The position numbers were made by a program, and so were the translations under genes. The notes beneath the pieces are model-generated. The model did not search any database. It worked only from the letters and a program-made list of their open reading frames with translations, and was not told the origin of the DNA. 64,000 bases of DNA, taken from NCBI RefSeq assembly GCF_057098645.1, contig NZ_CM169472.1; one strand, given 5' to 3'. Shown here piece by piece: positions 340 through 450 of this stretch (positions are counted from its first letter, which is position 1; every line of letters begins with the position of its first letter).

Positions 340-450
340 ACCCTATGGATTTCTGGGTGCAGCAAGGTAGCAAGCGCCAGAATCCTCAGGAGCTTACATA
401 AGTAAGTGACTGGGGTGAGGGCGTGAAGCTAACGCCGCTGCGGCCTGAAA
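340..450. repeat. ERIC (IRU) enterobacterial repetitive intergenic consensus element
   Basis: Core at about 378-428 (gaatcctcaggagcttacataagtaagtgactggggtgagggcg) matches both halves of the ERIC consensus as used for the ERIC1R/ERIC2 PCR primers (ATGTAAGCTCCTGGGGATTCAC reverse complement and AAGTAAGTGACTGGGGTGAGCG) with one or two mismatches. Outer boundaries are approximate. Confidence 0.7.

Follow-up and report, generated by a model that had tools for sequence, protein, structure and literature searches.

The locus analysed here is the aceF-lpdA spacer near the beginning of a window of 64,000 nucleotides (the whole stretch of DNA that was analysed; contig NZ_CM169472.1 of the RefSeq assembly GCF_057098645.1). 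The spacer comprises 324 nt (170-493), which is also its length in E. coli K-12 MG1655, and lpdA is followed by yacH on the opposite strand. The features of the locus are as follows.

1-169, plus strand: 3' end of aceF, with the stop codon at 167-169 (ORF translation and K-12 RefSeq annotation).
172-201, plus strand: terminator-like hairpin followed by a T run, AAAAGAGCCGGCC CAAC GGCCGGCTTTTTT, with 13-nt arms that are 92% complementary.
264-292, plus strand: lpdA-specific promoter, with the -35 hexamer TTTAAA at 264-269, a 17-nt spacer and the -10 hexamer TAAAAT at 287-292 (promoter scan).
299, plus strand: inferred lpdA transcription start (ATG at 494 minus 195 nt), 7 nt past the -10 hexamer.
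311-317, plus strand: 5' arm of the basal leader stem, CCGGTGG, paired with 465-471 in the minimum-energy fold.
318-337, plus strand: linker between the basal stem and the ERIC element, a degenerate remnant of the ancestral inner-stem 5' arm.
338-462, plus strand: ERIC/IRU element of 125 nt, bounded by the terminal repeats ATACCC (338-343) and GGGTAT (457-462); its core spans 379-421 and includes the apical loop (398-401).
465-471, plus strand: 3' arm of the basal leader stem, CCGCCGG (minimum-energy fold and leader comparison).
484-496, plus strand: Shine-Dalgarno sequence AGAGG (484-488) and lpdA start codon (494-496), invariant across species.
494-1918, plus strand: lpdA, encoding dihydrolipoyl dehydrogenase of 474 aa (ORF list and K-12 annotation).

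The hairpin that follows aceF is conserved in all Enterobacteriaceae aligned; the terminator scan returned the stem at 172-201 on the minus strand only, and the T run on the plus strand was read from the sequence. In K-12, the ArcA-regulated lpd promoter is placed 195 nt from the lpd ATG, as quoted in PMC2759082 from Spencer & Guest 1985 and Cunningham et al. 1998. Given that the K-12 spacer is of the same length as the one in the window, this distance puts the transcription start at 299. The lpd promoter is described in the literature as not bound by PdhR. The predicted promoter at 264-292 is the sole sigma-70-like site that the promoter scan detects in the spacer and is overlapped by a perfect 18-bp palindrome, AAAATTGTTAACAATTTT, at 268-285. 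The entire promoter block is near-invariant across 80 Enterobacterales species, regardless of whether an ERIC is present.

ERICs have been known since 1990-91, and there is hardly any doubt that the sequence at 338-462 is, in identity and position jointly, a bona fide full-length ERIC (IRU) miniature inverted-repeat element. The original prediction had recognized both halves of the ERIC core in the aceF-lpdA spacer and proposed that the element forms a long stem when transcribed, and on both points the present analysis agrees. The exact 30-mer core GAGCTTACATAAGTAAGTGACTGGGGTGAG is found at 390-419, with no matches in shuffled sequence, and is covered by two directly adjoining primer sites: the reverse complement of ERIC1R matches 379-399 with two mismatches and ERIC2 matches 400-421 with one mismatch, neither of which ever occurs in shuffled sequence (primer sequences from PMC3866615). 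The core is surrounded by inverted 27-nt arms (337-363 and 437-463) that are 70% complementary. Folding of the segment 335-465 predicts a long, interrupted hairpin at 337-463 with a loop at 398-401 and a free energy of -64.4 kcal/mol, against -37.7 +/- 3.6 kcal/mol for shuffled sequences (z = -7.39; none of the 200 shuffles is as stable). With respect to the extent of the element, the location first proposed (340-450) is correct but the boundaries are not, the element being wider. The segment 338-462, in all its 125 nt, aligns from end to end with a consensus built from the ERICs of K-12 ahpC-ahpF, Hafnia and a further nine species, so that the match is by no means limited to the core. Among the full-length matches are ERICs at unrelated loci: one in the K-12 ahpC-ahpF spacer, one in Hafnia and one that lies downstream of lpdA in Serratia oryzae. 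In blastn comparisons with the copies present at the lpdA site in other genera, identity ranges from 70 to 93% over 79-127 nt, most of these matches covering the full or nearly full element. The possibility of a chance palindrome, or of a separate small RNA or small protein in place of an ERIC, was considered and rejected in view of the absence of the core and the primer sites from shuffled sequences and the full-length ERIC similarity.

The terminal repeats of the window copy hold TA at 339-340 and 460-461; Table 1 of PMC2229807 gives a 7-bp terminal repeat with 5'TA3' termini for ERICs. The E. coli copy is flanked by CA and TG, and the ancestral sequence is missing on the right flank. No TA target-site duplication is visible at this copy, and the ERIC-free allele has other sequence at this place instead of a clean empty site. 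The window, in its 64 kb, contains this ERIC only. A 501-nt query from the locus nevertheless has a median of 5 matching sites per genome in E. coli, even though aceF and lpdA each occur once, and in K-12 a second ERIC, in the opposite orientation, is located between ahpC and ahpF. Within the element at lpdA, a single substitution, T386 for the C of K-12, distinguishes the window from that strain; the predicted partner of this position in the hairpin is G413, and the substitution turns a C-G pair into a U-G wobble.

In contrast to its identity, the role ascribed to the element at the outset, as overlapping the region of the lpdA promoter, has to be revised, the hexamers (264-292) and the start site (about 299) both being located upstream of the element, which begins at 338. 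Because the start site precedes it by approximately 40 nt, the ERIC is part of the lpdA 5' leader, spanning about +40 to +164 of the 195 nt, and leaves the promoter and the start untouched. This corrects the anatomy of the spacer, with the element placed in the lpdA leader and not in the promoter. An ERIC that overlaps or forms part of the lpdA promoter, and acts on transcription initiation, would fit the knowledge that an internal promoter resides in the aceF-lpdA spacer. However, the published start precedes the element by 39 nt, the promoter-like hexamers (264-292) are located farther upstream still, the promoter block is kept in species and strains without the ERIC, and the promoter scan finds no further promoter-like site within 338-462. 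An effect on initiation is very improbable.

The leader into which the element is inserted is itself a conserved structure. The lpdA locus was fetched from 80 Enterobacterales species, and the leaders were aligned from the conserved promoter to the ATG. In most species, the leader is 95-120 nt long and consists of a basal stem (CCGGUGG/CCGCCGG), an inner stem (typically GGCGUUA/UGACGUC) and an AT-rich, highly variable apex, and then the invariant TTAAGAGGTCATGATG. Across 41 distinct leaders that lack an ERIC, the basal stem hardly varies; in a covariation analysis, one pair alone shows a double change, and the comparison demonstrates a constraint that fits an RNA structure and a DNA site alike. 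The sequence of the inner stem varies with the hairpin potential kept, e.g., CAAAGC/GCACUUUG in one leader (L012), as read from the alignment. The minimum-energy fold of the whole leader in the window shows the ERIC hairpin stacked on the basal stem, and the ERIC-free leader of O157:H7 folds with the same basal stem and a 5-bp inner stem. The inner stem has degenerated in the E. coli-type allele: its ancestral 5' arm GGGCGTTA has become GGGTATTA at 324-331, within the linker, and its 3' arm is gone.

Strain-to-strain presence and absence of ERICs in E. coli was reportedly analysed by Wilson and Sharp in 2006. At the lpdA site, a comparison of this kind, which had been suggested along with the original prediction, reveals a clear polymorphism: 3,432 of the 5,426 complete E. 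coli genomes (63%) carry the long, ERIC-bearing form, in which the whole 501-nt query is matched. The remaining genomes (approximately 37%) yield a two-piece match spanning 384 nt and are 117 nt shorter. The reciprocal search with the O157 allele produces the complementary pattern and no third common allele among the complete E. coli genomes. Accordingly, the annotated spacer measures 324 nt in two reference strains (K-12 and IAI1) and 207 nt in four others (O157:H7, CFT073, IAI39 and 042). We take the former two strains to represent phylogroups A and B1, and the latter four to represent E, B2, F and D, respectively; in these six reference strains, then, the ERIC is present in phylogroups A and B1 and not in B2, D, E and F.

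In the short allele, the segment corresponding to 318-465 of the window is replaced by the unrelated 31-nt sequence GATAATGGGCGTCATAAAAAAAACGTCAGAC, the boundary being ambiguous by a base or two. This 31-nt apex closely resembles that of Kluyvera, Klebsiella and Atlantibacter, which makes the short allele the ancestral type and not a deletion derivative of the ERIC-bearing allele. The type strain of E. albertii carries the ERIC and the linker with one difference from the window, at the base where K-12 also differs, so that the two features appear to be identical to those of K-12; farther downstream, lpdA of E. albertii is 88-97% identical to that of the window. Such near-identity suggests either constraint or a recent recombinational transfer of the allele through the very conserved flanks, to judge from these sequence comparisons. 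No import tract is visible around the indel, although flanks as highly conserved as these could scarcely show one. With the ERIC present in about two-thirds of the E. coli genomes and absent from about one-third, in lpdA leaders that otherwise hardly differ, upstream of a gene of central metabolism, this polymorphism amounts to a natural experiment.

The presence of an ERIC in this leader is not confined to E. coli. Among the 80 species representatives, 11 carry an ERIC in the apex of the lpdA leader: E. albertii, Enterobacter sp. 10-1, Entomohabitans, a Raoultella MAG, Serratia grimesii, S. oryzae, S. silvae, Pectobacterium betavasculorum, two representatives of Erwinia persicina, and Yersinia pekkanenii. 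All 11 elements are in the plus orientation, with local alignment scores of 98-165, compared to 24 or less for the reverse strand and a maximum of 29 for shuffled sequences. The junctions are diverse. Escherichia, Enterobacter sp. 10-1 and Entomohabitans share a common junction, at which the right end of the ERIC abuts G(A/G)CCGCCGG; the ERIC-bearing leader of Raoultella has kept both arms of the inner stem; and the Serratia copies show a TA duplication relative to an empty relative (empty GATTAGCAATAAAAATGACG, filled ...AATAA-TA-[element]-TA-AAAATGACG). The junctions in Pectobacterium, Erwinia and Yersinia are each different again. There are at least six distinct ERIC junctions at the apex, which implies at least six insertion events.

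Traces of additional elements are found at the same position. In two Pectobacterium species, the ERIC termini alone remain, and a 73-nt leader shared by four genera keeps a 12-mer of the ERIC right end, GACGACGGGTAT; in the approximately 370 kb of sequence retrieved, this 12-mer is restricted to lpdA leaders with an ERIC and these four 73-nt leaders. In Pantoea and Izhakiella, the apex contains a different inverted-repeat element. The TA-rich apex can be inferred to be the one permissive landing site in an otherwise tightly constrained spacer. As the remainder of the spacer is under constraint from the terminator, the promoter, the basal stem and the ribosome-binding site, insertion would be tolerated at the apex only, and a permissive apex would explain the repeated entry of ERICs and other small repeats in different genera. 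Alternatively, the recurrence at the apex might come about through a target preference of the ERIC transposase for such loops.

The ERIC in the E. coli lpdA leader is probably a tolerated passenger that has, at most, a modest effect on leader stability. The ERIC landed in the AT-rich apex of the conserved leader hairpin, and the 3' arm of the inner stem disappeared later from the E. coli-type allele. When transcribed, the element is expected to fold on itself into a hairpin of approximately 125 nt, stacked on the conserved basal stem. It would then merely lengthen the existing hairpin, leaving the Shine-Dalgarno sequence and the AUG exposed as before, and the intrinsic terminator separates it from aceF. 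The partition function computed with ViennaRNA for leaders extending from the start site to +60, for alleles with and without the ERIC, conforms to this picture. Around the AUG (-20 to +14), bases are unpaired with a mean probability of 0.59 when the ERIC is present and 0.63 when it is absent; the corresponding values are 0.75 and 0.79 for the Shine-Dalgarno sequence, and 0.59 and 0.61 for the 5'-terminal 12 nt. Because the exposure of the start region is nearly equal in the two alleles, the ERIC is predicted to be structurally insulated, and on these thermodynamic models it would be near-neutral.

The orientation of the inserted elements is the principal observation that points in a different direction. 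Under random orientation, the same orientation at six junctions has a two-sided chance of about 0.03, and this bias hints at selection on an RNA-level property of the element, hence at some function or at least a constraint. It is because of this bias that a regulatory role stays the main rival of the passenger explanation. The ERIC could be a working post-transcriptional control element of lpdA, a leader hairpin that alters mRNA decay, which we regard as possible although rather unlikely. The hairpin could shield the leader from 5'-end-dependent attack by RNase E, or capture of the left repeat by the upstream GGGUAU (324-329) could lay bare an RNase E site located in the terminal repeat at the 3' end; in either case, the amounts of Lpd would be unequal between the ERIC-bearing and ERIC-free lineages of E. 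coli. Along with the single orientation at all junctions of the apex, precedent comes from Yersinia, where, according to the reviews PMC2229807 and PMC10969869, ERICs have an orientation-dependent effect on mRNA stability, exerted through an RNase E site in the 3' repeat. An alternative pairing is predicted as well: the linker at 322-329 can pair with the left end of the ERIC (338-345) in an alternative hairpin (322-345) of -9.5 kcal/mol that competes for this end, and a similar pairing is seen in Enterobacter sp. 10-1 and Entomohabitans. Furthermore, the stem of the ERIC is kept intact by compensatory changes, with 21 of the 37 pairs in the consensus structure across 11 ERIC copies showing such changes, and the T386 variant of the window still pairs, as a U-G wobble. 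Nevertheless, the ERIC is missing from about 37% of the E. coli genomes and from most Enterobacterales species, and the predicted accessibility of the ribosome-binding site is unchanged. The Yersinia mechanism requires ribosomes that terminate beside the element, whereas 168 nt and a terminator separate the aceF stop codon from the window copy. At equilibrium, the ERIC stem (approximately -63 kcal/mol) far outweighs the alternative hairpin, and the conservation of the stem could equally serve transposition at the DNA level.

A more specific form of regulation would make the ERIC RNA a substrate of RNase III, similarly to the Correia/NEMIS elements of Neisseria, with cleavage of the duplex processing the lpdA leader. 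In favour of this, the ERIC forms a long, imperfect duplex, RNase III cleavage of Correia elements is documented in the literature, and the stability of the aceEF-lpd transcript is affected by RNase III in K-12 (PMC5371410). However, the RNase III site that has been reported for the aceEF-lpd operon is in the pdhR-aceE spacer, the site in the ahpC-ahpF spacer (639695) lies approximately 55 nt outside the ERIC of that spacer, and the ERIC stem is interrupted by many internal loops. The lpdA-site ERIC lies within K-12 127,755-127,881, and the portion of the list of K-12 RNase III sites that was analysed includes no six-digit position of the form 1277xx-1278xx and none labelled lpd. Taken together, these data make processing of the leader by RNase III very unlikely. 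In the same portion of the list, the sole match to '1277' is the site 1277875, in narX-narK.

The landing-site and regulatory ideas could also be combined, with the apex of the lpdA hairpin acting as a convergent landing pad for small mobile repeats, of which one ERIC orientation is retained for a role in the leader RNA (e.g., tuning of mRNA stability, possibly via GGGUAU/AUACCC pairing). This composite scenario is, as a whole, distinctly improbable. Lpd is common to the pyruvate dehydrogenase, 2-oxoglutarate dehydrogenase and glycine cleavage complexes. If the scenario were correct, the split of the ERIC between phylogroups A and B1, on the one hand, and B2, D, E and F, on the other hand, would represent a heritable difference in Lpd dosage, and the ERIC-bearing allele may spread between species by recombination through the ultra-conserved flanks. 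If the orientation bias does reflect function, the lpdA leader would be a convenient place for testing the role of ERIC RNA in E. coli, which is still poorly defined.

As a member of its family, the window copy is an ordinary element; both the ERIC family and this copy are already known, and the K-12 reference spacer that contains the ERIC was sequenced decades ago. A literature search, with the original ERIC catalogues outside its reach, recovered no paper linking an ERIC to aceF, lpd or lpdA, and in the same search the nesting within the leader hairpin, the convergent insertions in the same orientation and the approximately 63/37 split in E. coli were not found. These three are the parts that might merit a short follow-up.

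Compared to the published descriptions of ERIC/IRU/RU-1 elements (Sharples & Lloyd 1990; Hulton et al. 1991; Wilson & Sharp 2006), the window copy is different in no essential respect: it has 125 nt versus about 125-127 bp, the central core, terminal inverted repeats of 6-7 bp and a long imperfect palindrome, and it is intergenic, situated in a transcribed region (to judge from the published start) and variable in presence among strains. Its particularities are the lack of a visible TA duplication and an ERIC-free allele with 31 nt of ancestral-type sequence. The ERICs that destabilize mRNAs in Yersinia (De Gregorio et al. 2005, as presented in PMC2229807 and PMC10969869) belong to the same family, are likewise co-transcribed with the flanking genes and act in an orientation-dependent manner, and the lpdA-site copies are strictly orientation-biased. 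The difference is in the location: the Yersinia copies are found at the 3' ends of genes, where, according to the same papers, terminating ribosomes unmask the cleavage site, whereas the window copy is in a 5' leader, 168 nt past the aceF stop codon (167-169) and beyond the terminator (172-201).

More distant parallels are the Correia/NEMIS elements of Neisseria and the REP/BIME sequences. The former are also miniature inverted repeats with TA termini that form long hairpins inside mRNAs and can be located in leaders, but they constitute an unrelated sequence family, for which cleavage by RNase III has been demonstrated and promoter or IHF motifs are possible. The latter are intergenic, transcribed palindromic repeats tied to mRNA stability at 3' ends; however, REPs are approximately 35 bp long and GC-rich, with a different consensus, and no similarity to REP is seen in the window ERIC.

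Several other signals overlap the element. Rfam contains no ERIC family, and the region is overlapped by sub-threshold hits only; the hit to CssrA at 409-509 was rejected, its 26 bits being far below the gathering score of 93. Also discarded were an ORF of 38 aa on the minus strand (394-510), which is without any other support, and the in-frame ATG at 461 as a potential start codon, which is buried in the basal stem of the ERIC, the annotated lpdA start being at 494. In the Rfam scan of the whole window at gathering scores, the hits are t44 and the HtrA thermometer alone, both of which are distant from the ERIC.

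The basal stem of the lpdA leader hairpin, CCGGUGG/CCGCCGG (window 311-317 / 465-471), is near-invariant in the lpdA 5' leaders of nearly all Enterobacterales examined (loci L003-L082, one leader from each of 80 species representatives), where it surrounds an inner stem and an apex, both of which are variable. No family matching this stem is present in Rfam. The apex that is occupied by ERIC elsewhere (window 338-462 in the present sequence) harbors a different repeat in Pantoea species and Izhakiella:

Leaders L057, L076, L077, L080 and L082 (Pantoea species and Izhakiella), about 100-240 nt ahead of the lpdA start codon: non-ERIC inverted-repeat element, GAGCCTATTCCATTAGGC ... 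GCCTAATGGGATAGGCTC.

In L057, this element consists of the paired termini only; in the remaining four leaders, about 100 nt lie between the termini.

Remnants and rearranged copies of ERIC are found at lpdA in several other species. In Serratia oryzae (L043), the leader copy is split at about 1296-1374, where some 70-80 nt of unrelated sequence with its own hairpins have been inserted, and a second, truncated ERIC is located directly downstream of lpdA (2975-3014). The lpdA leaders of two Pectobacterium species (L030 and L040) retain both ERIC termini only, about 40 nt altogether (TACACCC...GACGGGTGTG), a full ERIC is present in P. betavasculorum (L039), and none in P. carotovorum (L031); the set looks like an internal-deletion series. 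A further remnant is shared by four leaders:

Leaders L015, L027, L028 and L033, the 73 nt preceding the lpdA start codon (Citrobacter sp. MGH106, Cedecea davisae, Leclercia sp. and an Enterobacter MAG): identical short leader.

Here, the hairpin is deleted, and the sole remainder is the ERIC right-end 12-mer, GACGACGGGTAT. That four genera have this derived allele in common suggests that it was exchanged by recombination.

At the edges of the ERIC in the window, several additional features are apparent. The GGGTAT sequence at 324-329, upstream of the element, is a duplicate of the ERIC right end and can pair with the left end, ATACCC (338-343), in an alternative hairpin (322-345, -9.5 kcal/mol), a counterpart of which is seen in Enterobacter sp. 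10-1 and Entomohabitans. Within the right terminal repeat, there is an ATG (position 461) that is in the lpdA frame, with no stop codon across 461-493, so that the mechanically called lpdA open reading frame spans 461-1918, in contrast to the annotated start at 494; in the folded ERIC, the basal stem encloses this ATG. The segment 409-509 yields a sub-threshold match (26 bits against the gathering score of 93) to the Rfam family CssrA, a Shigella chromosomal sRNA. Because the match covers the right half of ERIC along with the lpdA start, it suggests that the CssrA family itself may include ERIC-derived sequence.

In K-12, the ERIC of the ahpC-ahpF spacer (639,509-639,752) has the opposite orientation. 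The RNase III site published for this spacer (639,695) is part of another hairpin, about 55 nt past the element.

Upstream of the hairpin, the spacer of the lpdA promoter is occupied by a perfect 18-bp palindrome, AAAATTGTTAACAATTTT (window 268-285), that is near-unchanging among the 80 Enterobacterales species compared and is probably the counterpart of the ArcA-bound region reported at the lpd promoter. The aceF terminator stem (172-201) was called by the terminator scan on the minus strand only; on the plus strand, the T run TTTTTTCT follows 3' of the stem.

Elsewhere in the window, yacH (minus strand, 1989-3842) contains a 96-nt tandem repeat in 2.7 copies (2222-2483), which codes for the recurring motif ...SPEQRQ..., as well as a 21-nt repeat (2867-2920), which codes for a His/Asp-rich run. 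Gathering-level Rfam matches are found at 53366-53411 and 62282-62368, to the HtrA 5' UTR thermometer and t44 RNA.
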